Positions 1,621 through 62,769 are shown, counted from the first letter of the stretch. The stretch is DNA of 64,000 nucleotides from Chiloscyllium plagiosum (GCF_004010195.1 NC_057749.1:6637612-6701611), one strand, 5' to 3'. Translations and numbers: made by a program. Notes: a model not told the origin generated them from the sequence alone.

Positions 1621-1897
1621 CTAACCCAATTGCCTAAGAATTGCCTGATGGACATTGACTATAATTGGGAGAAAGACTCTCTTGTTCCTCGGATGCTGCC
1701 TGACCGGCTGTGTGTTTTCAGTGCCACACTATTTGACACTGAATATAACTGGTGAAGTGGGACTCCCACCAGCTCTCTCACAAGCAAAAATGTTACCTGT
1801 TGGCCATTACATATCGCCTTTAGTATGGGATAGGGGCACCCCTTATGCCTTGTTTAATGCTGAGTTCAGGCAATAACAAAGGTTTTGTTTACTCTAG

Positions 1898-2023: not shown

Positions 2024-5000
2024 GTGAGCTTTTACTAAACAGAAAAGCTTAACGCCAGGCTGGAACCCCATAATTGCTGCTGATCCTATGCAATTGGGTG
2101 AAACCTTCTCATTAATTTCACTTCTGTTTATCCTTCTCTTGCTGTAGGTTGGAGTCTTTAGAATTGTGCCCGTTCCAGAAAGATCTCTTTGATCACTTGT
2201 TTCATTCTGTCAACCCAGCATGTTTTTCTCTATTTCCCACCACTATTGGATTGATGTTGGGGTGGCATGGTGGCTCAGTGGTTCGCTACTGGTCCCTCAC
2301 AGCACCAGGGACCCAGGTTCAAATCCACGTGCGTGTTTACCCTCCGGTTGCTCTAGTTTCCTCCCACAGCCCAAAGATATGCAGGTTACGGTGGGATTGG
2401 CCATGCTAAATTGCCCTTTGGGTCCAAGGATGTGCAGACTAGGTGGACTAGCCATGGGGCTAGTGGAGGGTTACAGGAATAGGGTGGGTGTGGATGGCAT
2501 GTGTCGGTGTGACCTGTTTCCTCACTGTTGGGATTCTATGTTTCTAATTGCAGGTTTGAAGCAGTGTAGAAAAGGGTCATCCCGTTCATTGTAACGGCAC
2601 TGGCTATTCAAATGAGCATTATGACTCAGTGTAATTCTCCAATCTTTCTCCCATAAGCTTACAAATTGTTTCTCTTCAAATCATCATCCAACATTCTCTT
2701 AAGTACCTCAACTTAACCTGCCTCCAGGCAGCGCATCCCAGACTCTAACAACTCACTGAATGAAAAAGTATTTTATCCTCATCACATTTGCTTCCTTGGC
2801 GAATTATTTCAAAGCTGTCCCCTTCTGTTATGAGTAGGAACAGTTTCTCCCTATCTGCTCTGTCCACACCCCTTGTGTTTTTCAAATCTTCCATCAAATC
2901 TCCTCTTAATCTTCTCCTCTCCAATGATAATAATCCCAACTGCTCCAATTTATTCTCATATCTGAAGCTGATAAAGCTGGAACCATTCCTGTAAATCTCC
3001 TGCACTCTCTCTAGTGCGTTTCTACCCTTAATCTAATGTGCCACCCATAACTGTACACAATACTCCAGCCGAGGTCTAATTAGTGTTTTATTAAAGTTCT
3101 GCATAGCCTCCATGTGGCCTAAATATTTAAAAAAAGGACCTTTTTTATAGAACCCAATTTAGTGACAGCAGGTAATTTGGATGGCAAGTAGAATATTGAC
3201 CTTTGTTTCAAGAGGAATGGGGTATAAACGTAAGGAGGACTTGCTATGACGTTCCAGACTTGATGTTGCTGTGTGAGACATTCTCTCCACTGGGTTACGC
3301 TGGCACTGGAGGCAACTCAAAAAAGATTCACCAGATTTATTCCTAGTTTGAAGGTCTCGTATTCTGAAGGAAGGAGGAGCAATTTGAGCCAATACTCATT
3401 TGAGTTTATAAGAATGGAAGGAGGTTTTGTTGAAACATGTAGGTTTCTGAGGGGCATGACAGGATAGATACTGGGAACATGTTTCCCTCTGAAGGAATCT
3501 AGAGTCAGGAGGTACGGTGCAAAAACAAAGGGTGTCATAATTCAGACCACTAGCTATAGGAGCAGCCCATTGAGAGGAGTGGTGCTGGAAAAGCACAGCA
3601 GGTCAGGCAGCATCCGAGGAGCAGCCCGTTGGAGCAGCCTTCACCATTTGATCGTGGGCTGATATGTTTATGGTGATGAGGAGGAATTTCATCTCTGAAG
3701 TTTGTGAATTTTTCAAATTCGCTGTCCAAAGATAACTGTGCAAGCGGAACTATTGAATGTATTCAAGAAAAGACAGACATTTAAATCAGGTGCAAGGTTT
3801 ACAAGCAACAAGTTAGTAAGTGGAGTTAAGATCACAATCTGATTGGCTATGGTCTTATTGATGGCAGATCAGGCTTGAAAGGCTATTCCTGCTCCTAACT
3901 TTTCCATTCTAGGTTTTCCAAGAGTTGGCTTTTCAATAAGGCGTAGCTTTAAATTATACAATTAAACTATAAAATATGGCACTTTAATACATTCCTGAAA
4001 AAAGACAGATTTTGTTAAAGCATCTCACCGAGAGAAGAGGCAACATATAGGGAAACATTACTACTGAATGAGAAGAGTGTTCGTATGGTTGGCAAGTGGA
4101 CCTTGATGGGCAGAGGCAAGTGTGGTGTTGGAAAGGCACAACAGATCAGGCAGTATCTGAGGAGCAGGAGAATTGACGTTTTGGGCAAAAAGCCCTTCAT
4201 CATGCCAGCCTGCTTTTCCAGAACCACACTCTCGACTCTGATCTCCAGCATCTGCAGTCCTCACTTTCTCCTTTGTTGGGCAAATGTGTCGCCACAGAGA
4301 ATGAGCAGGCCTAAGGTCATGCTTGTTCCTGAAAAGTGCCCATCTACTTCAGAGTGGAAGACTGAGGTATCTCAAAGATTGAACAACAGGTAAAGCTAGC
4401 TGTTTCTGTGCTAGCTATGCAATAGCAACACCATGTCATGTTGGTCACTAACAGGAATGCCACCATCAAGCTAAAGAGACACACTACTCATCACACAAAT
4501 AAATACTGTGGTAGATGAATGTCAATCTCAGTGTGATGCCAGTGGGTCAGTTTTTGTAATTTGGAAGGACTGGTGGATAATAGCCCTTTTTGCTGTTTGT
4601 AACAAGCAGGGTACTGACCATCTCCCACTAGCCTATGCTTGCAGAAATCAAAACACAGTGTCCAACATTAAACGTGCTAAGAATTTAGGTTTGTTGGTTG
4701 GGTTTACAGCATGACTTACCTCCACATACCTAGATACACTAATATAATTGGCCCTATTCTTCACACTCAGAAAGAACAAGACCACATGCTGCACTTGTTT
4801 CAGATGAACTCATCAAGTGATAACCATGCACTGTGTCATTCCTCAGGGGGATGAGTAAATCTGCCTGGTTTAACATTTGAACAAACATCGGCAGTTAATT
4901 GTCAGTCATCATGTAACCAGTGCTTTCGACATAACAATGCCCCTCTCAATCAGAGCCGGCCAATCAGCAGCGGCTTCTTGAATGGTGATTTCCCATTACA

Positions 5001-8000: not shown

Positions 8001-11000
8001 CACTGAGCCACTGTGCCACTCTTAATAGCTATTAATTGAATTTAAATTTCATCATTTCTTGTGGTCAGGTTTGAACCTACATTCCCAGAGCAATAGCTTC
8101 AGCCTTTGTATTGTTAACCCAATGACATCATCGCTACTTCAGCTTTGTTCCCCAGCAACGTTCCCATGCACTGGCTCGTGGACATGGTCCCAAAATCACT
8201 GGTTACAAATTACTTAATTCTCATGTAATGCTATCATGATTTTTATTATGTAATCACTACAAACCATTAGCTCTGCCTGCAGACTTCCAAACTAATACAA
8301 GAACACTTTTGCTGTTAGTTTGCTGAATAACCTCCAATTACCAGATTTGTGGGCCCTTTGTTAATACAAAATTCGGGAAACAAAAATATTTGGCTCCGAA
8401 TTGACTGTCATTCAGGACTGACTTATTTATTTGATGAGTATTTTGCTGGATTTGGCTGACTAGATATTCTACATTAATCTAATCTTATTTGCCAGCATTT
8501 GCCCCATATCCATCAAAACCCTTCCTATTCATTTACCATCCAAATGCCTTTTAAATGTTGTATTTGTACCAGCCTCCACCACTTCCTCTGGCAGCACATT
8601 CCATACACACACCACCTTCTGCCTGAAGAAGTTGCTCCTTAGGTCCTTTTTAAATCTTGCCCCTCTCATCTCAAACTCCCCCTACCTTGGGAAAAGAAAA
8701 TCTTGGCTGTTCACCCTGTCAATGCCCCTCATGATTTTATAAGGTCATGCCTCAGCATCCGACAGTCCAGGGAAAATAGCCCCAGCTTATTCAGCCTTTC
8801 CCTATATCTCAAACCATCCAACCCTGGCAACATTCTTGTCAATCTTTTCTGAACCCTTTCAAGTTTAGCAACATCATTCCTGTAGCAGGGAGACCAGAAT
8901 TGAACACAGTAATTCAAAAGTGGCCTAACCAATGTTAGAGCCGCAACATGACCTCCTGTACTCAATGCATTGACCAAGAAAGGCAAGCATACCAAACGCC
9001 TTCTTCACTACCCTCTCTACCTGCGGCTCCCCTTTCAAGGAACTATGAACGTGCACTTCAAGATCTTGTTCAGTAAAGTCCTCTTAGAAACATGCATTTC
9101 AAGTAAATTACACAGTACTGCCCCATTATCTGCATATCTGAAGGTGTTTCAGTTGATTTGAATGAGCTTCATGAAGAGGACCCTTTGAAAACTAAGCTTT
9201 TTGCGAAGCTTTGCTTGCCTCTTGCCTGAGAGACAGAGTAAGACATATCGCTGTCAGGAAACACCCACACATCTGAGATTTACAATATCTGGAAATGCTT
9301 GAATCTTGGTTAAAGGTCTACTTGAATGATTGGTGATTGTTAGCAAAATTAAGGCAGACATCTGCAGCTTTTAACAGCTCTACAGAAGGAGCAGACACTG
9401 TCAAATTAAATAAGTGAAGGAGGAGGAACAAAACCTGTGAAGCAGTGAGAAGTGTTAAAATAGCTGACAAGAAAACTTAAAGAGTGGCTGTGAGACATGA
9501 AGTGTGTAGTAGCCAACTTTATGTATCTTTCTGCACCTCTTGTCAGTTAAGTACTGATGAGAGGGTAATGGGGAAACCTGAAACTCGGTCCTCTGACTGT
9601 AAATAGAAGTGGAATATCCTTCAAAGGAGAAAGTGAGGACTGCAGATGCTGGAGATCAGAGCTGAAAATGTGTTGCTGGAAAAGCGCAGCAGGTCAGGCA
9701 GCATCCAAGGAGCAGGAGAATCGACGTTTCGGGCATGAGTCCTTCTTCAGAATACCCTTCAAAGTCCTAATAATTGTATTCTCTTGCACAGTTTTCCCAA
9801 ACTTGCCGCACTGACTGTACACCATGTCCCTGCTGTTCTTCCTCTCTCCACAGGTGGCAGTATTGCCAGGCCCTCACTGATCACTGCGCCATCTTTAAGG
9901 TCCCAGCTGCACAGTTGGCCAAGTGATGGCAGTCCACAGCTGTCCTTCACAGCTTGTTTTGTTTGTCCAGGCCATCAGCCTGGGGGCAATTTGCACCCCT
10001 GCTTCGTCACTTGGTCCTGCTGGGTGGGGAGTGTGTGGCGCATATGGCTCCTACTCCTGGAAAGTACCCTGAGATGATGGTGCCTCATGGGTGTTTCAGA
10101 GGAGCGAGTGGTGAGCTGGAGTCACCAGGTTATCTCGCTGCATTACTTTGATGTTGGGAACGTGTCTCCATTCAGTTTCTACTCAGCATCTGGGAGAATG
10201 GGAAGCTGCCTAATGGTGAAGATGTCGATGGACGTAAGACCATGCCTCTGTCTGCTCATTGATGAGAATTGCACCTTACTGGGTTAACGCTTGGTTGGAA
10301 AATAGAGCTTCTTACTCTCGATGGTGGGAGGCTCGGCCAATCTCCCAATTTTCTTCGATGCCTGCACCATTGGTGGCTCAGTGGTTAGCACTGCTGCCTC
10401 ACGGTGCCAGGGACCCAGGTTTGATTCCAGCTTTTGGTGACTGTGTAGAGCTTCTTTCGGGTGTTCCTCCCACAGTCCATAGATGCACAGGTTAGGTGGA
10501 CTGGCCATGCTAAGTTGCCCATAGTGTCCAGGGTTGTGCAGGCTAGGTGGGTCAGCCATGGTAAATGCGGGGTTACAGGAATAAAGTAGGGGGCTTGGGT
10601 GAGATGTTCTTCAGAGGATCGGTGCAACTCGATGGGCCAAATGGCCTCTTTCCACACTGTAGGAATTCTGTGATTCATTCAGGGGCTGGAAAGATTCCAC
10701 CCTAAGCCATTTAAAAACAATCTTTTATTTCAGTATTTCAATGTCAACATTTACTAGTTTCTCCCAGTTTACTTCATGCAAATGATGAAGAGAAACCTCT
10801 CAAACACTGGCTTCCTGGATCTCAACCCAATGCCTGCTGACTCGCGAAGGTGTGCCGAGGGAAAGTGGGTCCTTTCACACCTAAAGGTTTGCCAGCAGCC
10901 TCTATAAATGTTCAATAGGAGAGGACCAATTTTTTTTAGCATGAAAGTAAATGATGTGATTGTACTTCACAGGATCACAGCAGTCTTCTCGAACAGACAA

Positions 11001-14000
11001 ATGTCCTTTGGCCCATCATACCTGCATCCTTTATAGAATCGTATGGTATAGAAGAGGTCCTTTGACACATTGAGTCTGTACTGCCAAAGATTAATGGTAT
11101 GGAAGCAGGCCATTTGGTCCAAACTGACCCTCCAAAGAGCATCCCACTCAGACCCACTCCTCCACCCTATCCATGTAACCCTACATTTCCCACCTCGCTT
11201 GCATATCTCTGGACAATACAGGCAATTTCTCTCGGCCAATCCACCTAACCTGCACATCTTTGGACTGTGGGAGGAAACCAGAACACCCGGAAGAAACCCA
11301 CACAGACACGGGGAGAATGTGCAAACTCCACACAGACAGGTGCCTGAGGCTGGAATCGAACCCAGGTCCCTGATGTTTTGAGGCAGCAATTACTTTTATC
11401 CAAATACTCGTCTAATGCCCTCTTGTATGCTTCAATTTACATCTGTCTTCACCACACTTAAAGCACATGTATAAGCAGAAGAAATTGAAAGCATAAGAAA
11501 GGAGCTGTATATATGTAGAAATTTGCAAATCCTAAAATACAACTCTTTGAAATGTTGTCATTTGTAAATTAACATTACCTTATATAGAAAGCGCAGCAGG
11601 TCCCACAGGCAGTGATGAAGGACTCATTTATGGTGATATCGGTTGAGGACATGTCCCTGTTCATCTTTCATACTGAACAGGTACACACATACGTGCCCTC
11701 GATCACATTGCTTTAACACTGTACCACAACAAAAGTCTTAATCCAGGACCGCAACCGAATTCCATTCCCTGCTGAGTCAGAAATGGGAGTTTCTTATCCT
11801 TCTTCTTTCATTACTGTGTATCTCTCGTGCATTTCAAAGTTCAATTAAGAGTCACCCACATCGCTATATAGAGTCACAAGGAGGCCAGACCTGGTCTGGA
11901 TGGCAGATTTCCTTCCCTAAAGGATAGTGGTGGACCAGATAAGTTTTTACGACAATTGATGCTAGTTCCATGGTCACCATCACTGAAACCGGCCTTCAAT
12001 TCTCAATTGATTAGAACCCATCTCTTGTGAGCATTAACCTGGCCTCTGGATTACTACCCTATGGCATTACCATTACAGCAATGTCTCTCCTAAGTGCGAG
12101 AAAGGTACTAACTTAACCACGATGGCATATGCATAGAAATACACTTGCATTGACTGCTTTGCCAGTCTGATTCCTGGGACGGCAGGACTGAAATAGGAAG
12201 AAGATCAGTAATGATTTTATTCACTGGAGTTCAGAAGAATGATGGGCAATCTTATAGAAGCCGATAAAATTCTATCAGGGCTGGGCAGAGTAAGTGCAGG
12301 AAGGATGTGGCCAGGATGCCCAGAAATACCATCCATGAACACTGGGCAGGCCATTTAGGACTGAGATGAGGCGAAGTTTCTTCACCCAGAGAAATGGGGA
12401 GACTGTGGAATTCTCTGCCACAGAATGCAGTTGAGACAAAAAAAAATCAGGTGCTGGAATCCAAGGTAGACAAGTAGGGGGCTGGAAGAACACAGCAAGC
12501 CAGGCAGCATCAGGAGGTGGACAAGTCAACATTTCAGGTGTAACCCTTCTTTAGAAAGCAGTTGAGGCCAAATTACTGAATGTTTCCAAGAAGGGCTGGA
12601 GGGAGTCAAAGGGTATGAGGAGAATGTGGAACAGATCATCCAACTGAGTTGAATGATCAGCTATGATCATGTTGTATGGGAGAGCAGGCTTGAAGGGTCG
12701 AATGGTCTGCTCCTTCTCCTAATTTCTCTTTACATGACTCAGCCTGCTCCCAGACTTAATCACGGAAGTCAAAGCTAGCACTTCAGTGTAGTACTGAGTG
12801 AGTACTGCATTGTTCTGAGACTTAGGCAAACCAAGACTCTTCCTGTCTGCTTTGGTGGATGTGAAAGGTCCCATTTGCACTTATCTTGAAGGAGAGTGGG
12901 GGAGTTCTCTTTGGTATCCTGGGCAATACCCTCAATCAGCATTGCAAACAAAAGCCAGATTATCTGGTCACTGTCACATTACTGTCTGTAGGAGGTTGCT
13001 GAGTGCAAATTAGCTTCCAATTTCATCCCTTATCTTTCATGCATTATTCCCCACATTACAACAGTGCCTACATTTCGAAGAAAAAGTGCTTCATTGGCTA
13101 GAAAGTACATTGGATATTTTCCTGACCACTGGACGTCTCAATCATGCAAGCCTTACGTTATTTTGTGCAGAAATTTGAATGAAATGAAATGGTCTACTGC
13201 TAATTGCCACATCCTTTTACATAGAATGTAGAAGAGTACAACACAGGAATGAGCCCCTCGGCCCATGATGTTGTGACAAACATAATGCCGAATTAAACTA
13301 ATCCCTTCTGCCTGCCCTTGCTCCATATCCCTCCACTCCTTGTATATTCATGTGCTTATCTAAAAATCCCTTCAATACTCCTGTCATATCTGCCTCCACC
13401 ACCAACTGCCTCCACCAGCGTGTTCCACACTCTCTGTAGAAAACTTGCCCCTCACGTCACCATTGAACTTCCCCCTCTCATCTGAAATGTATGCCCCCTA
13501 GTTTTAGACACTTCAACTCTGGGAAAAAGATTCTGATCGTCAACCCTATTTATACACCTCGTAATTTTATAGATTCCTTTCAAGTGTCCCCTCAGCATCT
13601 ACCGCTCCAGAGAAAACAACCTGAGTTTTTCCAGCATCTTCTTATAAGTCATACCCTCTAACATCTCCTGCACCTCCCCACAGCCTCCACATCCTTCCTG
13701 TAATCTGGTGACAAGAAATGAATGCAATACGCTAAGTGTGGCCTAACCAAAGTCTTATAAAGCTGCAACATGACATCCTGACTCTTGTACTCAATTCCCC
13801 GATCAATAAAGGCAAGCATGCCATGTGCCTTCTTTACCATCCTATCTACTTACATGGCCACTTTCAGGGAGCTATGGACTTGAACCCCAAGAACCCTCTG
13901 TACATCAATGCTGTTTAGGGTCCTGTCAGTAACTGTATACTTTTACTTAATATTTGATCTCCCAAAGTGCAGCACCTCACACTTACTGGGATTAACCTCT

Positions 14001-17000
14001 ATCTGCCATTTATCCGCCCATATCTGCAACTGAGCTATATCCTCCTGCATCTTTGATAACCTTCTACTCTGTCCATGACTCTACCTATCTTTATATTGTC
14101 TGCAAATTTACTAGCCCATCAATCCACATTTTCATCCAAGTCATTTGTATATATCACAAACAGCAGAGGTCCCAGGACAGATCCCTGTGGAACAACACTA
14201 GTCATGGATCTCCAGCCTGAAGAACCCCTTTCGCCCCCACCTTCTGCCTTCTATGGGCAAACCGATTCTGAATCCATGCAGCCAAGTCACTATGGATCCC
14301 ATGCATCTCAATATTCTGGATGAACCTACCATGAGGGACCTGGTTGAAAGTCTCACTAAAATCCACATTGACAACATTCATTGCTCTACCCTCACCGATC
14401 ATTTTCATCACCTCCTTGAAAAATTCAAGACATGACCTGACCTCCACATGCTGACTGTCCCCGATTAAGCCATACTTTTCCAAATGCCCGTACATCCTAT
14501 CCTGAAGAATTATCTCCAATAGCTTCCCAACCATGGGTGTGAAACTCATCATTCTGTAGTTTCCTGGATTATCCCTATTTTCCTTCTTGAACACAGGAAC
14601 AAACTTAGCTACTCACCAGTCCTCTGGGACCTCTCCAGTAGCTATTGAGGATACAAAGATCTTGGTCAAGGCACCAGCAGTCTTCTCTCTTGCCTCTCTC
14701 AATAACCTGAGGTAGATACCATCTGGCCCTGGGGACATATCCATCTTAATGCTCTTCAAGAGAACCCAATACCACATATTTCTTGATCTCAAAATGCCTT
14801 AGCATATTAGCATGCTCCACACAAATTTCACTAAACCCCATATCCTTCTCCTGGGTGAATATCAACACAAAATACTTATTTAGGATCTCTGCCTCCAAAC
14901 ACAAGTTCGCTCCTTTATCCTTGAGTGGTCCTACTTCCTTCCTAATTATCCTCTTGTTTTAAATCTAAGAATAGAATGCTTTGGGGTTTTCTTTAACCCT
15001 TTTCTTAAGAGGGATTTTAAAAATGATCATGTAGTGATGGGACATATATAAGTCACACATAAATGGTTGTGCTTGGCCTTTTTAACCTGTAATCTTTTGC
15101 TTCATCTGCACAGCTGGAAACAGATTATTCTGAATTTTATTCCACTGAGCTGCACCTTAATGTTTGAGACTAATTTTAGTTATTGATGTACAGAATGAAT
15201 ATTCACACCCATGAATTTTATATTCATTCACGGGATGGGGCAAAATGGAGACACAAGGCTGAGCCCTAGCATGTAGCCACTAACTAACATGGAGCCACTG
15301 GAGACTTGGACTTCCCAACACCAAAAGGATATGACTTGTAGGTTACCTTAGCAATTCCTAAGATGCTAAATGGAACAGAAGGATCCTAGTGGGGCATTAC
15401 TTCAAGGTAGATCATCAGGACATGGGGATAGAGAATTAATACTGCAAAAGGTATATTTAGGACTGGTTAGAGAATCCATAAGAGTGGAGGCAAAATGTTA
15501 AAGGAAGTCTTTAAAAAGCTGCAAAACATGTTGGAAGAATGTAGGTTGGATTTGGATGGATGCACTGGGGAGGGTTGAATAGGCTTTGCCATTCTCATCT
15601 CTCTTCTGAATTCCTGACTTGGTAAAAACAATGACTGTGGATGCTGGAAACCGGATTATGGATTAGTGGTGCTGGAAAAGCACAGCAGTTCAGGCAGCAT
15701 CCGAGGTGCAGTGAAATCAACGTTTCAGGCAAAAGTATTCCTGATGAAGGGCTTTTGCCCGAAACCTCGATTTTCCTGCTCCTCGGATGATGCCTGAACT
15801 GCTGTGCTTTTCCAGCACCACTAATCCAGAATCTGAATTCCTGACTTGACTTTCTTCTGACATTGAGGATAAAGTGCATCGTTTCCCTGTAAGGTTAACA
15901 GCTTGTCATATCTCTTCTAGGGGTCGTACCTGGAGATCAAGAAACAAATGGACAAGTTGGATCCACTGGCTCATCCATTGCTACAATGGTACCTCAGTGT
16001 AGTGTGTGTGTTTGTGTGTGCACGTGTATGGTGTGTGTGTGTGTGTGTAGTGCCTTTTGATATGGCAGACACTGTGACCTTGTATTACTTAGCTAGCATC
16101 GTATGGGATAGAAAAGATGTCATCCATTTGTGAATGGGGAGATAAGTGAAGACAACAAGCCTGAATCAATGTACTAGCCAGACATAATAATGAAAGGGAA
16201 ATGTATCCAGTTATATGATGAGTTCCAGTTATGCTTCTCACCTTCTGATTGGCCAGCAGCTCTCTCAGTCAAGACTCCCTGCTGAGAAAGGGTTACAGTC
16301 TTGCTTTAAAGCAATTACCTGGCGCCTGGTGTGAAACATGCTACAGGGCCACGAAAGTGGGGTCATCCCCCAGCCGAGTTTTTAGCTGGGGTGGGTGAAC
16401 TGTGATTTTATTTTATATTCATTCATGGGAAAATGGCATCACTGGCTAGACCATCATTTATTGCCCATCCCTAATTGCCCAGAGGGCAGTCATTGCAGTG
16501 GGTCTGGAGTCACAGGTAGGCCAGACTAGGTAAGAATGGCAGTTTCCTTTCTGAAAGGGTATTAGTGAACCAGATGGGTTTTTCCAACAATTGATTCATG
16601 AGAAACACTCAATTCCAGATTTTGTTTTGATTGAATTCAACTTTCACCATCTGATGTGGTGGGACTCAAACCTGGGTTCCCAAAACATTACTTGGGTCTC
16701 TGGATTAACCACCCAGTGAGAACACACTAAGCCATTGCCTCCCCTTTATGGTAATGATATTTGTACTGAGATTTATCTGATTGGATCATCTCACATGATC
16801 TTTAAACAATGATAATCACAAAATAGTAATACAGTAGCGATAATGATAACTTTCGATAATCAGTGATTGCAGTAAAGAGTAGCCAGACACCACAACATCA
16901 TTTCCCATCCATTTACAACAACAACTTCTATTTACATAGCATCTTTAAATGACTGAGATGTCCAAAGGTGCTTCACTGGAGCATTATTGAACACGCATTA

Positions 17001-23000: not shown

Positions 23001-26000
23001 GAGCTGCCAGAGGAAGTGGTGGAGGCTGGTACAATTGCAATATTTAAGAGGCATTTGGATGGGTACATGAATAGGAAGGGTTTGGAGGGATATGGGCTGG
23101 GTGCTGGCAGGTGGGACTAGATTGGGTTGGGATATCTGGTCAGCATGGACTGGTTGGACCGAAGGGTCTGTTTCCATGCTGTACATCTCTATGACTCCAT
23201 GACTAAGTGCAGGCAGGTGGGACTAGTTTAGTTTGGGATTATGTTTGGCATAGACTGGTTGGACCGAAGGGTCTGTTTCTGTGCTGGATGACTCTATAAC
23301 TCTATAACTCTATCCATCAGCTTCTTGAAATAAAATCTAGGTTCTTGGGAAACGCTATGGAATTCTTGCAGCTGGGCATTGTGTGCATCTCTTGGCACTG
23401 CCAATGGGAAAAAAAAACGTTGGAGGTTGTAGCAGATGTCAGGGAATTGATTTTTAATTTTCTTTTTCACGAGGTATTGCTGGTAAGGCCTGCATTTGGT
23501 GTATATCCCCTTGAACTGAGTGGCTTGCTCAATGATTTCTGAGGGCAGTTGAGAGTCAATCACATTTGTAGTGCATCTGAAGTAATGTGTAGGCCAGACC
23601 AAGTAAGGGTGGTAGAGTTCCTCCCCTATGCATCAAAAGTGGAATGTTTCGTGATCACTACTCATGAGGCTAGCTTGTGATTCTAGATTTTATTATTTGT
23701 AATTGAATTTGAATCCACCTGCTTCCATGTTGATTTGAGCCCATGTTCCCAGACCATGAAATCTGAAACAAGCATAGAGAACACTGGAGAAACTCAGCAG
23801 GTCTGGCAGCATCTAAAGAGAAAGAAAGAGTTAATATTACCAGTCCACTATGACTGTTCCATTCCAAAGAAATCCCATTGGATGGAAAGGATTAGCTCTG
23901 TTTCAGTCTCTATAGAGGCTGCCACCGAAGTTGAGTTTCTCCAGTGTTGTCTGTTTTCAATCCCCAGACATTAGCCTTAGATTGCTAGACCACTGACATT
24001 ACCACTACAACATCATCTGCCTGAATGTGATAGCCATATCTCCCTTTTACTCACTCCCAATCCAAAGGCGAGATGCAGAGGTTACATTTAAGCCCCGCCT
24101 CATCTCCTTCTGCATCCAGGTAGCTGAATGGCAACACTGGGATTGTGTTATGAACCAGGAGTGAAGCAATTAATTGTTTCAAAATAAGTCAACTCCTTAA
24201 CTGTCATTGAGATTAAATCTTGCCCTTTCTTTTGGCTTCTCTGTTAACCTGAGCGAGTACTAAGATGAAAAGCAGCACAGCCTTTAGGTTAGCATGCCAT
24301 TACAATTTCGCACACAGCTCAGCCCTTCATTTGATTGAAACTAAAGCTAAACTGTGTCATCAGGGTGGGATCTGGAATTTGGACATTATTCTCACCTGAA
24401 GAGTCATGGGCAACGTCAAATAAATTAGGTAGGTATTGCTGTCGAGGTTAAATGTCGTCAAACGTTTCAAACACAAAAATGATATTGTTTTACGGGATGG
24501 CGTGTGTTAACTATTGATTCAGTCCCTGTTTTGCCTGTTGTTGAGAATCAGTCAGAAAAAAAGTTAACAGTCGCCAAGTGGTAGTTTATGCCAGAAGAAT
24601 TCCCCAAAGCTTGCACTCCGTGAATCAGAAGCTGTTGCTATTTCCTTGGCTAGCTCAGATGGACAGCACTGTGCCATCTTTATGCCAACCCCCATCCCCC
24701 CCCTCCTCCCAAACTACTGGACCCCAGTGAAGTCACTTAGAAAGATTTCAAGAGTGAGGTTTGTGTTTGTGAACTCCCATTGTGAAGCTGCTTGGCCATA
24801 CCCTTCCCCGCTTTCCCTTGCACCCCAGTGCCACAAAAATGCTGAAGCGTGTGGTGCTGGAAAAGCACAGTAGGTCAGGCAGCATCTGAGGAGCAGGAGA
24901 ATCAACGCTTCACCAGGAATGAAGGGCCTATACCCGAAACGTCGATTCTCCTGCTCCTTGGATGCTGCCTGACCTGCTGTGCTTTTTCAGTAACACACTC
25001 TCGACTCTGATCTCCAGCATCTGCAGTCCTCACTTTCTCCAAAAATGCTGAAGCCTCAAAGGTGTAATTAAATCTCATGATATTTTGGCCATGTCATCAT
25101 GCTTTGTAGTTACAGGGAGGAATGTGCTGGTGGGGCTTAGGTGCAGAGTTGAGACCGCCACATTGTGGTCAATTATTTCAGCCAAGTTGGCATCTGATGT
25201 TAAATTCTAGGATGTTAAATCCATAAAATAATGAGTAGAAGAAAACATATATGCTGATAACATGGATGGTTTGTTGGTGAATGAATGATGTTCACATTTT
25301 AAAAACTTACACTTGCCTGTTCGATCATATTGTTTATCATAAACCCTCAGGCCAGATAGCACTTGCACAGAGCAGGAACCTGCCAACTATATACTCTGCG
25401 GATGAAAAAATTCTTTTGTTCTCACTGTCTGCCGTAAGCATACGCAGACACTTTTATAGGTTGGCAGCCAATGGGTTTAGTCACATTATAAATCGCCATC
25501 AAATCCTGAGGTGGGACTTGAACTGGGAGCATTTGGTCCAGATGCAACCCACTAGTGCAAAGCAATACAGGATAGAAGGTCCCATATTGACTCCAGGGAA
25601 TGAGTGAGTCAGCAAAGCAGTCACTGGGTTAGGCTGGAGGAAGAAAAATCAGGACGAGTTCCTGCTCTCAACTAGTACCCAGTTGGCTCCAGTGGAAGAT
25701 GCTTGAATGTAAATGGCAGCTCCTCACAGGACATTTTCTCTTCTCTCTGACCTTTCCATTCCGGGTAGTCTCCAAGATGACAGAGAGAGACACACCAGCA
25801 CAGAGAGAGAGTCCCTTCAGGGGAGGCAGCAGGGGTTTGGAACAGTTGGACTCTTACTCCCGTCAGAGAGCCCTTTGTGCAGTGACACATCAATCGGTGG
25901 CATGGAGTGACGGAGCCAGGCGGTTAGGAGCTCAGCTCAGGTTGTCTCCGATGTTGTGACTTTGTGAACCTGCCATATCTTTCTTTTCACAGCAGTTGAA

Positions 26001-29000
26001 ATTCATGCACACCTCGCACCAGTTCCTCCTGTTGAGCAGCCCCCCAGCCAAGGAAGCACGTTTTCGTACTGCCAAAAAGCTCTACGGCAGCACCTTCGCT
26101 TTCCAGTGAGTACCAGTACCTTCGCAGACAAGAACACAAAATATAAATAAAAGCTTTGAGTAAACATTTGGCCTTTTCCAAATCTTTACCAGATGTCTTG
26201 CCGATGCTATGGTATCACATTCCCCTGCGCATTACCCTTTGGTATGATGCAAAGGTTGGGTGACAGAAACAGACATTCCTGATGAAGGACTTATGCCCGA
26301 AACATCAACTCTCCTGCTCTCGGATGCTGCCTGACCCTTTGTGCTTTTCCAGCGCCACACTCCAGCATCTGCAGTCCTACTTTTTCCTACTCCCTGACAG
26401 GAACAGCGCCAGTCTTAAAAATTTCAAAAGCGAATCAGGTGGAAACACAAAAAGCAGAGAAAAAAAAACCAGCGCTGAGAAGATGGTTGTCAGTCGAGTT
26501 GGACAGCCATTTCACAGAACAAGTGCAGACATAATGATCCAAATGGTCGATGTTGTATAGTAATGTAAGGATACTTAAGGTGGAGGGTGAGCAGCCGTGG
26601 TACACATTGGTACCAATGACATAGCTAGGAAAGGGGATGAGGACCTGAAAAGTGATCATACGGAGTTAGGTTGGAAGCTAAAAGGCAGGACGAGCAGAGT
26701 AGTAATCTTAGGACTACTGGTGCCATGGGCTAGTGAGGCTAGGAACAGACAGAGAGTGCACCTGAACATGTGGCTGCAGACGAGTTGCACCTGAACTGGA
26801 GGGGCACCAATATCCTGGGTGGGATGTTTGCTAGAGCTCTTTGGGAGGGTTTAAACTAGTTTGACAGGGGGGTGGGAGCTAGGGATCAGAGGATGGGGTA
26901 GCTGGTGAACAGGCAGATACAGCGTGCAGACAGTCTGTGAGGAAGGATAGATTGTTGATAGGGCAAAGTTGCAGTTAGTGTGAAGCGTCAGGAATAAGTT
27001 TGATGAACTTAGAGCATGGATCAGTACTTGGAGCTATGATGTTGTGACCATTACGGAGACTTGGATATCATAGGGGCAGGAATGATTGTTGGATGTTCTG
27101 GGGTTTAGATGTTCAAAATGAATAGGGAGGGAGGTAAAAGAGGTGGGTTGAGTGGCATTGCTAATCAGGGACAGTATCACAGCTGCAGAAAGGGAGGTCA
27201 TCGAGGAGGGTTTGTCTACAGAGTCAGTATGGGTGGAAGTGAGAAAACAGGAAAGGAGCAGTCACTTTATTGGGAGTTTTCTGTAGACCCCCCACTAGCA
27301 ACAGAGACATGGAGGAATTGATTAGGAGGCAGATTTTGGAAAGGTGCAGAAGTAACAGGGTTGTTGTCATGGGTGATTTTAACTTCCCTAATATTGATTG
27401 GAATCTGCTTTGTGCAAATTGTTTGGATGGAGCAGATTTTATCAGGTGCGTCCGGGAAGAATGCTTGACTCAATATGCAAATAGGCCAACTAGAGGGAAG
27501 CCATATTGGATTTGGTGCTCGGCAACGAACCAGGTCAGGTGTCAGATCTCTCAGTGGGAGAGCATTTCGGTGATTGTGATCACAAATCCCTGACGTTTAC
27601 TATAGTCATGGACAAGGATAGGAACAGATGGTATGGGAAAGTATTTAATTGGGGGTGGGGGAATTCCAATGCTATTAGGCAGGAACTGTGGAGCATAAAT
27701 TGGGAACAGATATTCTAAGGGAAATGCTTGACCGAAATGTGAAGGTTGTTTAGAGAGCATTTGCTGGGAGTGCTGGATAGGTGTGTCCCACTGAGGCAAG
27801 GAAGGGATGGTAGGATGAAGGAACCTTGGGTGACAAAGGATGTGGAACACCTTGTCAAGAGGAAGAAAGAAGCACACTTAAGGTTGAGGAAGCAAGGATC
27901 AGACAGGGCTCTAGAGGGGTACAAGGTAGCCAGGAAGAAAGTGAAAAATGGACTGAGGAGAGCTAGAAGGAGGCATGAAAAAGCCTTGGCAAGTAGGATT
28001 GAGGAAAACCCTAAGATGTTCTACACTTATGTGAGGATCAAGAGGATGGCCAGAGTGAGGGTTGGACTGATCAGGGATAGTGGAGGGAACTTGTGCCTGG
28101 AGTAGGAGGAGGTAGGGGAGGTCTTAAATGAATACTTTTGCTTCAGCGTTCACTGGTAAGATGGAACTTCTCATTTGTGAGGACAGTGTGAAACAGGCTG
28201 GTATGCTTGAACTGGTTGATGTTAAGAAGGAGAATGTGCCAGAAATTTTGAAAACACGAGGATAGATAAGCCCCATGGGCCAGACGGGATACTCTGGGAA
28301 GTGAGAGAAGAGATTGCTGTGCTTCTGGCGATGATCTTTGTGTCCTCATTATCCACTGGAGTAGTGCCAGATGATTGGAGGGTGATAAATGTTATTGCCT
28401 TGTTCAAGAAAGGGAATAGGGTTAATCCTGGGAATTACACACCAGTTTGTCTCACGATGATGGTGGACAAATTATTGGTGAGGATTCTGAGAGACAAGAT
28501 TTATGATTATTTAGAAAAGCATAATTTGATCAGAGGTAGTGAGCATGGCTTTGTGAATGGCAGGTCATGCCTCACAAGCCTTATTGAGTTCTTTAAGGAT
28601 GTGACAAAACACATTGATAAAGGTAGAGCAGTGGATGTATAGTACATGGATTTTAGCAAGGTGTTTGATAAGGTTCTCCATGATAGGCTCATTCGGAAAA
28701 TAAGGAAGCATGCGACACAGGGAAATTTGGCTGTCAGGATACAGAATTGATTGGTCAATAGAAGACAGAAGCTGGAACTCGATGGAAATATTAAGCCTGC
28801 GCTCGGTGACCGCAGGGATCTGTTCTGGGACCTCTGCTCTTTGTGATTCTTATAAATGACTTGGATGAGCAAGTGAAAGGGTGGATTAGTAAGTTTGCTG
28901 ATGACATGAAGGTTTGTGGTGTTATGGATAGTGTGGGGGGTTGTTGAAGGTTGCAATGGGACTTTGTAGGATGCAGAGCTGGGCTTAGAAGTGGCTGTTG

Positions 29001-32000
29001 GAGTTCAACCTGGAAAAGTGTGAAGTGATTCATTTTGGAAGGTCAAATTTGAATGGAGATTATAGGCAGGATTCTTGGCAGTGTGGAGGAACAGAGGGAT
29101 TTTGAGGTCCACGTCCGTAGATCCCTCAAAGTTGCCAACCAAGTCGATAGGATTGTTAAGAAGGCATATGGTGTGTTGGCTTTCATGAGCTGGACAATTG
29201 AATTTAAGAGCCATGAGGTTATGCTGCAGCTCTGGTGTGACCACACATGAAATATTGTGTTCAGTTCTGGTCAGCTCACAATAGGAAGCTTTAGAGAGGG
29301 TGCAGAGGAGTTTTGCCAGGATGTTGCCTGGACTGGAGGGCATGTCTTATGAAGAAAGGTTGAGGGAGCTTGGGCTTTTCTCATTGGAGTGAAGAAGGGT
29401 GAGAAGTGATAGAGATGTACAAGATAATGAGAGACATGGATAGAATGGATAGCCAGGGACTTTTTCCCAGGGCAGAAATGGCTATCATGAGGGGGCATAA
29501 TTTTAAGGTGATTGGAGGAAGGTTTAGGGGAGATGTCAGAGGTAGATGTATTGAAGGGAAGGAATAGAATGATAAACTGATAAAGTTGGATGAATAAAGG
29601 AGGCTGTTAAGGTGGGTTAAACCATCCCAAAGGGCCAAATGCTCTCAGTCAATGCTCTGCATTAATTTGTTTTTGGTAGTTTGCAGGATGAACAGAAGAT
29701 GCATCAAATTTTCTCCTCTTCATGAAATATTTCAGATCCATGTGAATAGGGTAATAAGGCCATGACAAGCCAATCTATGGCAGATCTGCCAATACTGCTC
29801 TCTTCCATTAGCATGCAAACCCCAGGTTGTGTGCATAAATGCTAGAGAGGACCTGTAACCTGCTGACTCAAAGGCAAGACTGTCATCAGTTTACTCTTCA
29901 AAAGCCGTTTGCTATGACACTCGTCAGGATTACTGTTCTAGAGAAAGCTGTGCGTTTGCTTCCTTCAAGATGTACAGACAAACATAATTAATCCTATCAA
30001 TCAGTAATAGTGTTGAAGATTGAATGGCTTTACTGTGTAATGAATTTGTGCTTAACATTGTTTCTCTCTTTCATCCTGTAACAGTGGATCGCACATTGAG
30101 AACTGGCATTCTATTCTGAGAAATGGCCTCGTCAATGCTTCTTATACAAAATTACAAGTAAGTATTCCCTTGTGAATGGTATAAAAGAAGATTAATTATA
30201 TTCTTACTATCGCAAGAACTTTCTCTCAGTTAGAACACTGCAGCTTATTAGCCTGCATTCAAAAGATGGAGAGATTGCAGATGAGATTCATGTGAGTAAA
30301 ACTAGGCTTCCATTATAAAAGAGAAGATGGGGAAAGAGAGGGTAAGAACAGATCTGACCAAGATGTTTAAAATTATTAAGGATGTTGACGAGTTAGTTTA
30401 TTTCCACTCATTAACTGAACTGACAATGTATTTTAAAATAGCCAAAAGCATGAAAGGGTGAGGTTAGTCAGTCAAAGGAATTTTATTTTTAACAAAGAGA
30501 GCATTTAGGGAGTGGGGTGTACACCCAGAAACAGTCGAGGTAGGATCCATTGTAAGTTTTAAAAAAAATTGATAGATATTTGAAAAATAAACTTAAGAAA
30601 TGAAATGATGTGGTGAAAGAGAGTGCCTATGTTAGTTTTCAGCGAATTGATACAAAGGCTTTGGGCTGAATTCTACACTATAAACCTCTAAGATGACCAT
30701 GTTAAAATGACAGTGAGGAGCTAACCATAGAGTATAATAGGACAGCGAACTGGTCTGACATCTGATACTATTGTCATTGCAACCTTTCCCTGTTGACCCT
30801 GTCCAGCTCTGTCAGTGTGTGTTTTGCATAGGTGTAGCATAGTTATTGGATATTGGTTATTGCAGAGAGAGAATTGGATTATCTGTACTTTTGGCACCTT
30901 CAAGTAGCTTCTAATTGATCTGCCCCTGCCAACAAATGATTATTTTTAATGTCAAATCTGTCGCTGCTTTGGAATTATACTCTTTATGGTATTAAACGCA
31001 AACTGTGGCCATGTTTCCTCTAAAAACTACCCTTAGAACAAAATTCAATGATGTGGAGGTGCCAGTGTTGGACTGGGGTGGATAAAGTTAATAATCACAT
31101 GACACCAGGTTATAGTCCAACAGCTTTTGGAGTGCTACTCTTTTGTCTGGTAACTCATATCCCATTAGTTACCTGATGAAGGAGCAGCGTTCTAAAAGCC
31201 TGTACTTTCAACTAAACCTCTTGGACTATAACCTTGTGCTGTGTGAACCTAATGTGAGATGAATCTAGGCAGCCAAATGTCAACTCAGGTGCCAGATTGC
31301 TTTTGAATAATGGGGTATGTGCTCCCAACGCATTCAAAATGGGCACCTTAGAACCAACTGCGCATGCATAATTTCACACATTTGCACAAATGATTCCAGT
31401 GACACTGGAGAATATTTCTACTGCAGAATTCTAACTTCTGTAACATATGTTTCACTGCAGACTGACTGTAACTGAGGAGCTGGGCTGCCCCCAGGACAGC
31501 ACCACCTCACTAGGGAAGCAGGCTGCACAGCTACAGTCTCAAATTAAGGATAAGCAACAGCGGGTTTCAACTTGTTGTGCCACTGGTACCTACCAATTGA
31601 AGTGTTAAGGCAGTAATTATCTAAACTGTATTGTCATGTGTTGCTGTACTTACTGTTTAAAGTCACCATAGTCCCAATAGCTTCCCTCTCATCAGAGAGA
31701 GACGGCTGGTTTTGAGTTTAACCTGAGGGTGACCGCAGCTCAGGCAAAGGGGCAAAAGTGAGAAGGTGGGTCCTTCATGATAACCACAACTGGAAATTGA
31801 ACCCAAACAGATGGCATCACGATATCGCAAACCAGTCGTCAAGTCAATTGAGCCAAGTGACCCCCTTATTTACTGCTAAGAGGCTGCTGGGTCCATAAAT
31901 GTCACTTGTACATTCTCCCCCCATCCCTTTTTTCCTGCACCTATGCAGGACTTCAGATTAGATGTTGTGATTTTTGTATCTGTGGTGGTATGTTCTCCAT

Positions 32001-35000
32001 CTAGCAGGGTATTGGTCACAAGCATGATGAAGGGCTTATGCCTGAAACACCCTGCTCCTCAGATGGTGCCTGACCTTTTCCAGCTCTACACTCTCGACTC
32101 CACGAGCACTACCTTTGATTGAATGCTGTTCTCCTTTGTATGTTTCTCCCCAGCCTCAGGCTAGCTACCTTTCACAGGTGCTTCCTCTCTCCTCTGAGAT
32201 CCACACACTAATCAGGAGAGACGTGTAATAGCCTGAACCTCGAGCTTGCTGTAATCTCGTATTGATGCCAGCTGTCAGGAAGCGCATCTGTACTAGGATG
32301 AGATGACAGCATCTCCTGCTTGATGACCCTTCTCTTATCACCAACTCCACTCAACACCCACTCTACCCACCCAGTAAAAACTGATACCAGTGATTGAATG
32401 TGTGGAGCAGGAGTCGGAAGAAGCCTTGATGGAGGTGACCAACTGACTGGTCAAAGAGTGAGGTTTTAAGGAGTATAGTGAAGCAGGAAAGGCTGTGGTG
32501 AGCCAAAAGGAAGTGGGAAGAGAACCTCACACACAGAGTGTTGCTGCGAGGCTGTGGGCTTAATGGCACACCAGTATTCGGCAAGAGGGAGGGGAGGATA
32601 AGGAGCCTTGGGACTCCAGTTTCTAACATCAGAATGATAGCTCAAAGTCCTAATATACAAACTGCTGCTGCAATTAACTATAGCTTTCTTCCAAACAATC
32701 ATAGAAAGATTATCAGGACAAAGGGGAAGCCATAGAAGAGAACAACGAAGTTTCCCAATTGTCAATAATAGAGGTTAATTAACATTAACAGTTCTCCCTC
32801 CTGAGTACTTTCTTTTTGGTCAAAGCTCCATTTGCTTTAGAGTACAAGGTATACCATTCATATTCCATGCAGCTTGCTGTCCGTGCAAATGTTATGATAT
32901 ACTTAAGCCTTTGATTACAGTCCAAGTATTTGCTCACCTATAGTCGTAACGATCACACTGCTGTCTCTTACAAGCTGCACGGTGCAGCCTATGGCAAAGG
33001 AATCTATCTGAGCCCAATCTCCAGCATTTCTTTTGGATACTCAGGTAAGTGACTCTTCTCTGCACCTCCCTTCAGCTGGTCTAGATCAAGTTTAATCCGT
33101 CACCAGTTCTTAAATATAGTTCTTCTGCTTGTTTTACAAATGGTCAATCATTTTGATTTACCCCACTGCAAAAACTGATGTGGGTTTATTCCAAGAGGGG
33201 ATAATCAATATAAATGAAAAGTTAGCTTCATTGTTCTCGATTAGGACATAAATTGTTTTAGATTAGATTCACTAAAGTGTGGAAACAGGCCCTTCAGCCG
33301 AACAAGTCCACACCGACCCTCCAAAGAGCAGCCCATTCCCCCACATTCACCCCTGACTAATGCACCTAACACTATGGGCAATTTAGCATGACCAATTTAC
33401 CTGACCTGCACGAGGAAACCAGAGCACCCGGAGGAAACCCACACAGACACGGGGAGAATGTGCAAACTCCACACAGACAGTTGCCCGAGGTGAGAATTGA
33501 ACCCGGGTCCTTGGTGCTGTGAGGTAGCAGTGCTAACCACTGAGCCTCAATTGTATTGAGGTTCTGAGTGGATTCCATTTCGGATTAGTACATCAGCTTG
33601 GTACAGTGGTTCAACATTGCTAAACAAGAGGTTTTTTTCCTTCTATTAATTCATGAGATTCACACTAGGCCAATATAAATTACCTGTCCTTAATTGCCCC
33701 AGAGGAAGTTAAGAGTCAACCACATTGCTTTGGGTCTGGAGTCACGTGTCAGCCTGAGCAGGTAAAGATGGCATTTCCTTCCCTAAAAATCATTGGTGAA
33801 GTAGATGGACTTTCCCAACAATGGCCTAGTGGTATTATCATTAGATTGTTAATCCAAAGACCCAGGTAACATTCTGGGGACCCGGATTCAAATCCTGCCA
33901 TGGCAGATGGTGGAATTTTAATTCAACAAAAAATCTGGACTTCAGTGTCTAATGATGAATCATGAAACCATTGTTGATTATTTGAAAAACCCATCTGGTT
34001 CACTAATGCCCTTTAGGGAAGGAATTTATTATCTCACCTGGTCTGGGCTACTTGTGACTCCAGACACATGGCAATGTGGTTGACTCTGAACTGCCCTCTG
34101 GGCTATTAGGGACAATAATCGCTGGTCTAACCAGTGACACCCACATCAGTGATTGAATAAAAAAAACTGTGAACAGTTTTACTGCCCTTTACTGTATTTA
34201 AGGAAAAGTACAATTGCATTGAAAGCAATTTAGTGAAATCTCACTGGACTGGTTCTTGGAATGAGTGGTTTGGCATTTGAGAAAGTGGTGAGCAGTTTGC
34301 CTATGCTCAAGAGGTTTCAGAAGAATGAGAGGCAATCTTGTTGAAGCATGTAAGATTCTGAGGGGGCTTGACTGAGCTTTGACCTCTCCTGGGTGAATGT
34401 TCAGGTGGTACCATGCCGACATGAGATGTCTCCCATTTAGGCTGAGTTCAATGTTTTGATTGGGAAGGGAATCAAGGGTCATAGGGGACAAGCAGGCAAG
34501 TAGGGTACAATTCTATCAGCCATGATCTTCTTGAATGGTGGAGCAGGCTCAATGGGCAGAAGAGCCTACTCCTGCTCCTAGTTCTTATAATCCGAGTGGC
34601 AGAGCACACAACCACACAAGCTAATAAAATTTATAGTTTATATTAGTGACTACATTAGCACATGATAGCTTAATATGTTTACAAGGCATTTCTCCACTTG
34701 TTTCAATGAAAACATTAAACCATTCAATATAAGTGGATTTACATATCTTAAAGAGCTGGGGAATGGATTAAAAATGTTTGTGCATTAGTTTCACAGTACT
34801 TTCTTGCCTTAAAACATTGTTCAGAAATGGACCCCCATCATAAATATAACTTAAATTCGTTGGCAATGTAAAAGCAGTGGAAGTTTCAACTGTATTTACT
34901 GCCTTTTGGTTATTGTCTCCAGTCTAAATTCCCACAAAAAAAACCCTGCTGCTGATTTAGAATGGGGACTGTGGGCTGAACATCTACCCTGTTTTCTAAG

Positions 35001-44800: not shown

Positions 44801-44847
44801 TACACAGGAACATATGAACTCATTCCAGGATAGGCCATACGGCCCTG

Positions 44848-44940
44848 TTCCTGATGAAGGGCTTTTGCCCGAAACATCGATTTTCCTGCTTCTCAGATGC
44901 TGCCTGACCTGCTGTACTTTTCCATCACCACTCTAACCTC
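44848..44940 (+). mobile_element. Penelope-like repeat family A arm with intact hammerhead-like core
   Basis: ctgatga 44851-44857, a, gggc-tttt-gccc 44859-44870, gaaa 44871-44874, catc. Confidence 0.75.
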
Positions 44941-54388: not shown

Positions 54389-54512
54389 GCCTGAAGAAGG
54401 GTTACACCCGAAACATCAACTTCTCCACCTCCAGATGCTGCCTGGACTTGCTGCGTTCCTCCAGCCTCCTGCTTGTCTAATTTGGATCCCAGCATCTGCA
54501 GATTTACTGCCT
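54389..54512 (+). mobile_element. Penelope-like repeat family B arm with hammerhead-like core
   Basis: ctgaaga 54391-54397, a, gggt-tac-accc, gaaa 54410-54413, catc. Confidence 0.7.
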
Positions 54513-61248: not shown

Positions 61249-61385
61249 TTCCTGATGAAGGGCTTTTGCCCGAAACATTGATTTTTTTTTCCTGCTCCTC
61301 AGATGCTGCCTGACATGCTGTGCTTTTGCAGCACCACTCTAATCTTGACTCTAATCGCCAGCATCTGCAGTACCCACTTTTGCCT
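61249..61385 (+). mobile_element. Penelope-like repeat family A arm with hammerhead-like core
   Basis: ctgatga 61252-61258, gggc-tttt-gccc, gaaa 61272-61275, catt; agc(t/c)ttcaga duplication. Confidence 0.75.
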
Positions 61386-62607: not shown

Positions 62608-62769
62608 CCAAGGAGCAGGAGAATTGACATTTCGGGCATGAGCCCTTCTTCAGGAATTCCTTCAGAAACGTCGATTCTCCTGCTCCCTGGATGCTGCCTG
62701 ACCTGCTGCACTTTTCCAGCAACACATTTTCAGCTCTGATCTCCAGCATCTGCAGTCCTCACTTTCTCC
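62608..62769. mobile_element. Penelope-like repeat family A, inverted pair with 15-bp target duplication (a second copy at ~62914-63018 has a 16-bp duplication)
   Basis: ctgcacagttttgat at 62593-62607 and 62769-62783; aaa(c/t)gttttgagcagg at 62898-62913 and 63019-63034. Confidence 0.8.

Follow-up and report, generated by a model that had tools for sequence, protein, structure and literature searches.

The closest described systems are the minimal type-I hammerhead ribozymes of Penelope-like elements (PLEs), defined by Cervera & de la Pena 2014 (PMC4209133). Their published consensus reads NNN CUGANGAH G…C GAAA N-palindrome-N U H NNN, with helix I lengths of 2-6 bp. Four of their features fall outside the descriptor used in that search, namely covarying consensus families, an extra base after A9, a G10.1-C11.1 pair and palindromic positions 15.2/16.2. 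In vitro these hammerheads cleave poorly (PMC4209133), and parts of PMC11167929 describe the hammerhead of the anole element as dispensable for insertion in vitro. PLE insertions, as portrayed in sections of PMC8557442 (Craig et al. 2021), are heavily 5'-truncated and may be accompanied by a neighbouring copy that is inverted and itself 5'-truncated. A 30-40 bp 'tail' that may or may not be present is mentioned both there and in sections of PMC11167929.

We analysed a stretch of 64,000 nucleotides (hereafter the window) from the shark Chiloscyllium plagiosum (GCF_004010195.1 NC_057749.1:6637612-6701611), whose genome assembly has a size of 3.56 Gb. The dispersed short repeats of this window very probably represent the 3'-terminal (pseudo-LTR) part of canonical endonuclease-positive (EN+) Penelope-like retrotransposons carrying a hammerhead motif, with the window copies themselves being dead. 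Like the PLE minimal hammerheads (PMC4209133), the shark motif has both catalytic boxes, an unpaired base after A9, the G10.1-C11.1 pair, palindromic 15.2/16.2 without helix III and a putative short helix I. It likewise lies close to the 3' end, within the pseudo-LTR of an element with reverse transcriptase (RT) and GIY-YIG domains, and occurs as thousands of dispersed single copies, with opposite-strand copies close together. It differs from the published families in that helix II of the shark main family has 4 bp compared with 5-8 in most of them, and helix I has only two contiguous pairs. Poseidon PAc of Anolis carolinensis, as described in parts of PMC11167929, shares with the shark element a pseudo-LTR hammerhead adjoining the ORF start, two classes of 3' ends some 30-40 nt apart (the 'tail') and insertions involving both target strands. 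However, the PAc ORF begins inside the hammerhead, whereas the shark ATG lies ~175 nt downstream of a motif whose activity is predicted only. The same catalytic boxes and type-I topology are also found in animal retrozymes and Schistosoma Sm-alpha (RF00163), but unlike those hammerheads the shark motif has no loop-loop tertiary contacts, helix III, tandem arrays or Rfam match.

The exact 21-nt core occurs 33,354 times genome-wide, which is a lower bound because the pattern was anchored on a three-letter set; reversed-pattern controls for all core counts gave 0 matches. This single core outnumbers the ~9,000 descriptor matches of Xenopus tropicalis (PMC4209133), although the two counts were made differently. 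The host lineage is absent from the species table in part 2 of supplement file 2 of PMC4209133. A full-text literature search found no paper on PLE hammerhead motifs in cartilaginous fishes, and the sole 'shark' match in PMC6155905 describes the shape of a ribozyme. A 2026 preprint covers one chondrichthyan among 31 vertebrates. Penelope minimal hammerheads gain a further host with our results, a large vertebrate genome in which the copies number in the tens of thousands.

Read directly, the plus strand at 15741 is CTGATGA-A-GGGC-TTTT-GCCC-GAAA-CCTC, and the identical core recurs at 44851 and 61252. The pattern CTGANGA-N(8-22)-GAAA has 14 matches in the window, compared with 4.0 +/- 1.9 (maximum 9) in 100 dinucleotide-preserving shuffles of it. 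Nine of these matches are members of the repeat (9727-, 15741+, 26279+, 36688-, 43381-, 44851+, 54391+, 61252+ and 62630-), and the remaining five are close to the chance expectation. Allowing up to three mismatches, the 25-mer of 15741 has six window matches against 0 expected. Every main-repeat site named by the initial annotation is indeed there, and a direct check of its family B copy at 54391 (CTGAAGA, GGGT-TAC-ACCC) returned the same sequence. A profile of the last 296 element positions, which served purely as a ruler, recognized 24 window fragments, all of them short and none reaching upstream of position 141. On this ruler C3 is at 171, the unpaired A at 178, helix II at 179-182/187-190, GAAA at 191-194 and CGUC at 195-198, so that the first base past the predicted cut is 199. 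The fragments are given below together with family E and an unrelated repeat; 'hot spot' denotes an A four bases upstream of C3, at which copy 5' ends concentrate.

1675..1731, plus strand: coreless fragment, beginning at the base just past the predicted cleavage site
3577..3626, minus strand: coreless fragment
4122..4261, both strands: head-to-head pair, minus-arm core decayed to ATGATGA
9635..9754, minus strand: short copy, CTGAAGA subtype, helix II mismatched in the core at 9727-9750
12447..12557, minus strand: family B copy, core decayed to CTAAAGA
15621..15836, both strands: head-to-head insertion, minus arm 15622-15736, plus arm ~15737-15836
24851..25030, both strands: head-to-head pair, core truncated in each arm
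26275..26384, plus strand: short copy from the hot spot, core 26279-26302 with helix II mismatch GGAC/GCCC
31085..31260, both strands: family E head-to-head insertion, plus-arm core 31173-31200
31995..32092, plus strand: decayed copy with an internal deletion, C3 changed to A
35421..35440, plus strand: CTGATGA…GAAA in an unrelated repeat, outside the finding, no helix II
36352..36465, minus strand: short copy from the hot spot, GAAA box gone
36626..36716, minus strand: family B-like copy with an internal deletion, core 36688-36710
43286..43536, both strands: head-to-head pair, arms 43286-43408 (minus) and 43438-43536 (plus) with ~29 nt of filler between
44833..44936, plus strand: short copy with the short 3' end, intact boxes and helix II in the core at 44851-44878, CATC
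47698..47767, plus strand: coreless fragment
53614..53721, minus strand: strongly decayed copy
54388..54502, plus strand: family B copy, core 54391-54413, helix II GGGU/ACCC, loop UAC
61247..61371, plus strand: short copy from the hot spot (ATTCC), core 61252-61279, CATT
62579..62759, both strands: head-to-head pair, minus-arm core 62630-62653, boxes and helix II intact, TGTC
62937..63007, plus strand: coreless fragment

The motif is reached by 17 of the 24 fragments. None of the 17 has the full consensus any longer, apparently through CpG decay, and all have lost the ACGU palindrome; both boxes and a pairing helix II (G-U allowed) survive in seven. The suspicion that most copies are decayed is borne out. 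After GAAA the window copies show CCTC, CATC, CATT, TGTC, TGTT and so on, and GAAACGTC is absent from every one of them. CGTC is the consensus genome-wide only, where a 30-mer bearing CGTCGA is present 15,996 times. The proposed GUC triplet after a palindromic ACGT holds for the genome but for no copy in the window. The window variants look like CpG decay of the CGTC consensus, since both CpGs of CGTC|G are mutable.

The insertions have the anatomy of PLE insertions, the signatures seen being 5' truncation, head-to-head copies, two classes of 3' ends and target duplications around whole pairs. Head-to-head pairs account for five places among the 24 fragments, near 4.2, 15.7, 24.9, 43.4 and 62.7 kb. 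In the pair at 15.7 kb, the minus arm (15622-15736) extends to the full 3' end of the element, and the plus arm (~15737-15836) carries the hammerhead-like core at 15741-15768. Since a 15-bp direct repeat, CTGAATTCCTGACTT, flanks both arms (15606-15620 and 15833-15847), 15621-15836 constitutes a single insertion. Both arms of the pair at 43286-43536 begin at the hot spot, and the minus-arm core (43381-43404) has a damaged helix II. A family-C head-to-head pair with a 13-bp flanking repeat is found in genomic locus L032. The 3' ends are either full or ~35-45 nt shorter, with some intermediate. Truncated and fold-back copies of this kind would have been made during target-primed reverse transcription. 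The window copies, being either 5'-truncated ends or head-to-head fold-back pairs, would then have been dead on arrival, would since have been eroded by CpG decay and are probably inert passengers now. Intronic motifs of this kind are very probably relics here rather than ribozymes of the host. Among the window ORFs of at least 110 aa there are LINE-type RT and AP-endonuclease fragments only, and no PLE ORF.

Judged by sequence criteria, the motif is a member of the PLE minimal type-I hammerhead class. All four of the features lying outside the published descriptor are present in it. Its elements follow each other in the order CUGANGA, a single unpaired A, a helix II that begins with G10.1-C11.1, GAAA, palindromic A-C-G-U, C17 and a putative helix I of 2-3 bp, and the CUGANGA and GAAA boxes are correctly spaced. 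The unpaired base between A9 and 10.1 is A in 55 and U (T) in 4 of 59 structure-filtered motif copies. Helix III is missing; in its place the main family has ACGU-C and family E has AGCU-A/U. In the main family helix I consists of UC/GA, two contiguous pairs, near the bottom of the range in print (PMC4209133), and one subtype adds GUA/UAC past an internal loop. In family E it has 3 bp that covary between subtypes (UAC/GUA vs CAC/GUG).

Helix II differs between groups, reading GGGC/GCCC, GGGU/ACCC, GGAGC/GCUCC or GUUACCU/GGGUGAC, with differing loops of 3-4 nt. The last of these, with 7 bp, belongs to a third type that was sighted once, at locus L044. Between subfamilies, changes are confined to N7 (U or A), the paired positions of helix II and loop 2, whose variants are UUUU, UUAU, UCAU, AUGU, UUAG, UAC and AGC. 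Covariation of helix II is stronger between groups than inside the main A/B/C group, where a single pair covaries (C-G to U-A in family B). Several subfamilies do exist, as had been proposed. The accompanying claim that the core is retained while stem II varies but stays paired is correct between groups; however, inside the main group it has one covarying pair behind it, and it fails for the repeat at 35421, which is unpaired. Pairs were taken from a structural parse that required a paired helix II, and the parse is therefore no measure of how frequently helix II pairs. They were not counted from a MAFFT alignment of 53 motif copies, in which family E is one column off register and L044 is misplaced.

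The motif is outside the Rfam hammerhead families as modelled. A scan of the whole window at gathering thresholds returned no hammerhead model, and neither did searches at E<=10 of 15500-16000 and of the consensus-perfect loci L007, L059 and L044. Weak miRNA-like Rfam matches reflect the long hairpins of inverted pairs. For the monomer, the predicted optimum is a rod with UGAUG paired to CGUCG and the core buried (-11.4 vs -7.2 kcal/mol for hammerhead-like pairing). The predicted cofold of two monomers is a strand-swapped rod and not a double hammerhead. In addition, a very young subfamily, with copies 97-99% identical, has a helix II mismatch (GGGA/GCCC). Missing Rfam matches, the rod optimum and the mismatch in the young subfamily all weaken a confident reading as an active ribozyme. 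By analogy with described PLE hammerheads, the element RNA would cut weakly after GUC as a dimer that builds helix III across two copies. Alternatively, as the literature would suggest, cleavage after GUC might be aided by the protein of the element.

The parent element is evident in longer genomic copies. In many of 30 such copies, coding-like sequence precedes the motif in the same orientation. The full unit is ~3.5 kb long and consists of a 5'UTR of ~45 nt, an ORF, a 3'UTR of ~230 nt, the motif and a further ~130 nt, so that the motif is on the sense strand, ~130 nt before the common 3' end. The single ORF encodes an N-terminal region, a reverse transcriptase, a linker and a GIY-YIG endonuclease, in that order. 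Locus L032 has, in one open frame, RVT_1 (E 2.8e-6; 27.6 bits against a cut-off of 29.6) followed by GIY-YIG (E 6.5e-4), both about 2 bits below the Pfam cut-offs. GIY-YIG is also matched in locus L020 (E 2.6e-4), and YIDD and DKG motifs are visible in translations. The RT region is observed in few copies because many ORF stretches in the loci read N. A protein search of the genome gave 113,414 first-look candidates. In L025 and L051 the ORF begins with an ATG 41-45 nt past the end of the terminal module. Such tandem-type insertions, with a terminal module directly before the next ORF, correspond to the pseudo-LTR-ORF arrangement of PLEs. An upstream pseudo-LTR was not found in three further long copies, and one apparent upstream match turned out to be the end of an older, unrelated copy. 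Taken together, the features of canonical EN+ PLEs are found here: an ORF with RT and then C-terminal GIY-YIG, a pseudo-LTR, an inverted 5'-truncated partner and a variable 'tail'. Extending copies in search of an RT/GIY-YIG-bearing parent, as had been proposed, succeeded for the main family. Its suggested link to Penelope is upheld by the RT + GIY-YIG ORF upstream on the same strand and by the module repeated as a pseudo-LTR before the ORF.

While this kind of motif is already known, the less expected part is the pile-up of copy 5' ends at its edge. Ruler positions 165-168 are the 5' start of 21 out of 102 fragments from the window and the loci, 10 of them at 167. Such starts are found in the CTGATGA and CTGAAGA subtypes and in family B, and head-to-head pairs are often joined at the hot spot. 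Four of the 102 fragments start at 198-200, just past the predicted cut, including the window fragment at 1675 and the inverted arm in L032. This pile-up and the faint cluster at the cut site could bear on what the hammerhead does for the element and on cleavage in vivo. The hot-spot sequence, TTA|TTCC or TCA|TTCC, reads like an initiator. It is tempting to speculate that the hot spot might be a true RNA 5' end within the pseudo-LTR, that the hammerhead would thus sit at the 5' extreme of the transcript and that the ends at 198-200 might be a footprint of cleavage, but we offer this idea tentatively and consider it rather unlikely to be right. If it were, the start site would leave room for a 3-bp helix I only, and short copies would come from reverse transcription starting at an internal site on short pseudo-LTR transcripts. 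The 198-200 cluster would then record in the genome that the hammerhead cleaves in vivo, a trace which according to the literature has been missing. A stop of the reverse transcriptase at the motif or at a small hairpin just upstream is an open alternative explanation of the hot spot. An extra G derived from a cap is absent: in ~14 hot-spot copies counted by hand, the base before ATTCC is A in 7, C in 4 and G in 3. Single-cell polyA reads from one run, a library ill-suited to mapping ends, start sites or cleavage, cover both strands about equally, show no pile of ends on the element, and 96% of them continue into unlike sequence.

The end shared by the copies was also the reason to suspect a quite different origin. 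Window copies taken alone have the motif-side end in common and vary at the far one, which is why the motif could at first be taken for a LINE/SINE 3'-tail stem-loop read in antisense, with the 3' end of that element at the fixed end. This is next to impossible, since the motif is preceded, on its own strand, by an ORF and a 3'UTR, and the common terminus of long copies is the far end. Another question is whether the short copies are an independent, SINE-like or retrozyme-like, non-autonomous lineage that uses the PLE machinery. Many copies do have one defined 5' end four nt upstream of the core (the 21 of 102 above), and among the first 100 exact cores listed genome-wide (counted by hand, roughly +/-3) ~24 break within 5 nt of the motif. 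The 2026 preprint argues for an origin of animal retrozymes in PLE pseudo-LTRs, and in family E 38 of the 40 best matches begin within a few bases of a point ~200 nt upstream of the core. However, ~64 of the same 100 cores extend at least 14 nt upstream (another ~12 break at 7-13 nt), and no tandem arrays were seen. Furthermore, both short subtypes of the main family, …GATTTTAC… and …GATTTTCC…, also exist in long form, attached without a break to 3'UTR and ORF sequence. We therefore regard a separate lineage as improbable. Because both subtypes also occur long, the main-family short copies resemble by-products that autonomous elements leave through 5' truncation or fold-back. The earlier description of the repeats as non-autonomous thus does not apply to the main family but is possibly right for family E with its shared 5' end.

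A further possibility, which we find doubtful but deserving of more weight than a separate lineage, concerns function and not origin. The conserved hairpin might have a non-catalytic role in the element RNA, for example as a protein-binding site, an RT stop or template-switch point or a promoter-proximal element, its hammerhead look being inherited but idle. The monomer's preference for the predicted rod, the clustering of copy 5' ends at the 5' edge of the motif, head-to-head junctions at or within it and the helix II mismatch tolerated by the young subfamily all speak for such a role, and parts of PMC11167929 report that the anole PLE inserts in vitro without hammerhead activity. On the other hand, the positions fixed across unrelated families are exactly those of the hammerhead core, with N7 as the sole free core position, and the rod pairing is not preserved in family E.

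Family E, as far as its sequence goes, is a second real hammerhead repeat, the RT + GIY-YIG link being established for the main family only. Its form is GGAGC-AGC-GCUCC-GAAA-GCU-A/U. The plus arm at 31173-31200 reads CTGATGA-A-GGAGC-AGC-GTTCT-AAAA, just as initially annotated, and is a decayed form of the GCTCC-GAAA of the family. Genome-wide there are at least 2,697 candidates, and a degenerate pattern of the core has 8,976 exact matches; the family also occurs as head-to-head pairs. Because 38 of its 40 best matches share one 5' end, family E may be a discrete short element. The supposed fourth family at 35421 proved to be a different repeat and was excluded as a hammerhead. In an alignment of 17 rows (the window copy and 16 other genomic copies), CTGATGA and GATGAAAAG are conserved, and stem II pairing is absent throughout. 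The repeat that contains it has at least 826 candidates.

The trinucleotide GAC directly precedes the 5' end of six copies of the CTGAAGA subtype:

genomic locus L086
genomic locus L087
genomic locus L027 (two copies)
window 26275, forward strand, short copy
window 36465, reverse strand, short copy

In L086 and L087 the target-site duplication ends in this flanking GAC, suggesting either microhomology at the 5' junction or a target preference.

A very young subfamily, whose copies are 97-99% identical (loci L081-L093), carries GGGA-TCAT-GCCC, which is also found in 35 exact matches genome-wide; helix II then has either three pairs or an A-G mismatch. A third minimal hammerhead type, in which helix II is 7 bp and helix I is 3 bp (CCA/UGG), is represented by a single motif:

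L044:1165-1198, CTGAAGA-T-GTTACCT-AGTA-GGGTGAC-GAAA-TGTC (n=1)

Most of the Penelope ORFs in the genomic loci analysed are hidden by long runs of N (in many loci, for example L016, L018, L025:2198-3104 and L051), and statements about the RT region are therefore limited. These runs may be gaps in the assembly or withheld stretches. Within the N-terminal coding region of this ORF, some 100 nt 5' of where the query begins, several copies (L046-L052) contain CTGTAAGTA…, which could be a retained intron donor. Retained introns have been reported for Penelope-like elements.

The window also holds LINE-type fragments with open frames, which are unrelated to the Penelope copies:

window 14202-14612, reverse strand, LINE-type fragment, open frame
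window 27243-27593, forward strand, LINE-type fragment, open frame

One open frame of these fragments matches RVT_1 (E 4.2e-7) and another matches Exo_endo_phos_2 (E 9.9e-8).

At the insertion of two head-to-head arms, window 15716-15773 gives a weak match to the Rfam family mir-722 (26.7 bits versus a cut-off of 81 bits). This match arises because the head-to-head arms form a hairpin, and it does not identify a microRNA. Just downstream of the same insertion (15621-15836), the segment 15930-15990 contains an AG and, after it, an open coding-like stretch (…GGGTCGTACCTGGAGATCAAGAAACAAATGGACAAG…), which may be a host exon. Elsewhere in the genome, the sequence at L047:556-700 is tRNA-like (…GGCACAGTGGTTAGCACTGC…GGGTTCAATTCCCGCC…) and resembles the head of a tRNA-derived SINE.
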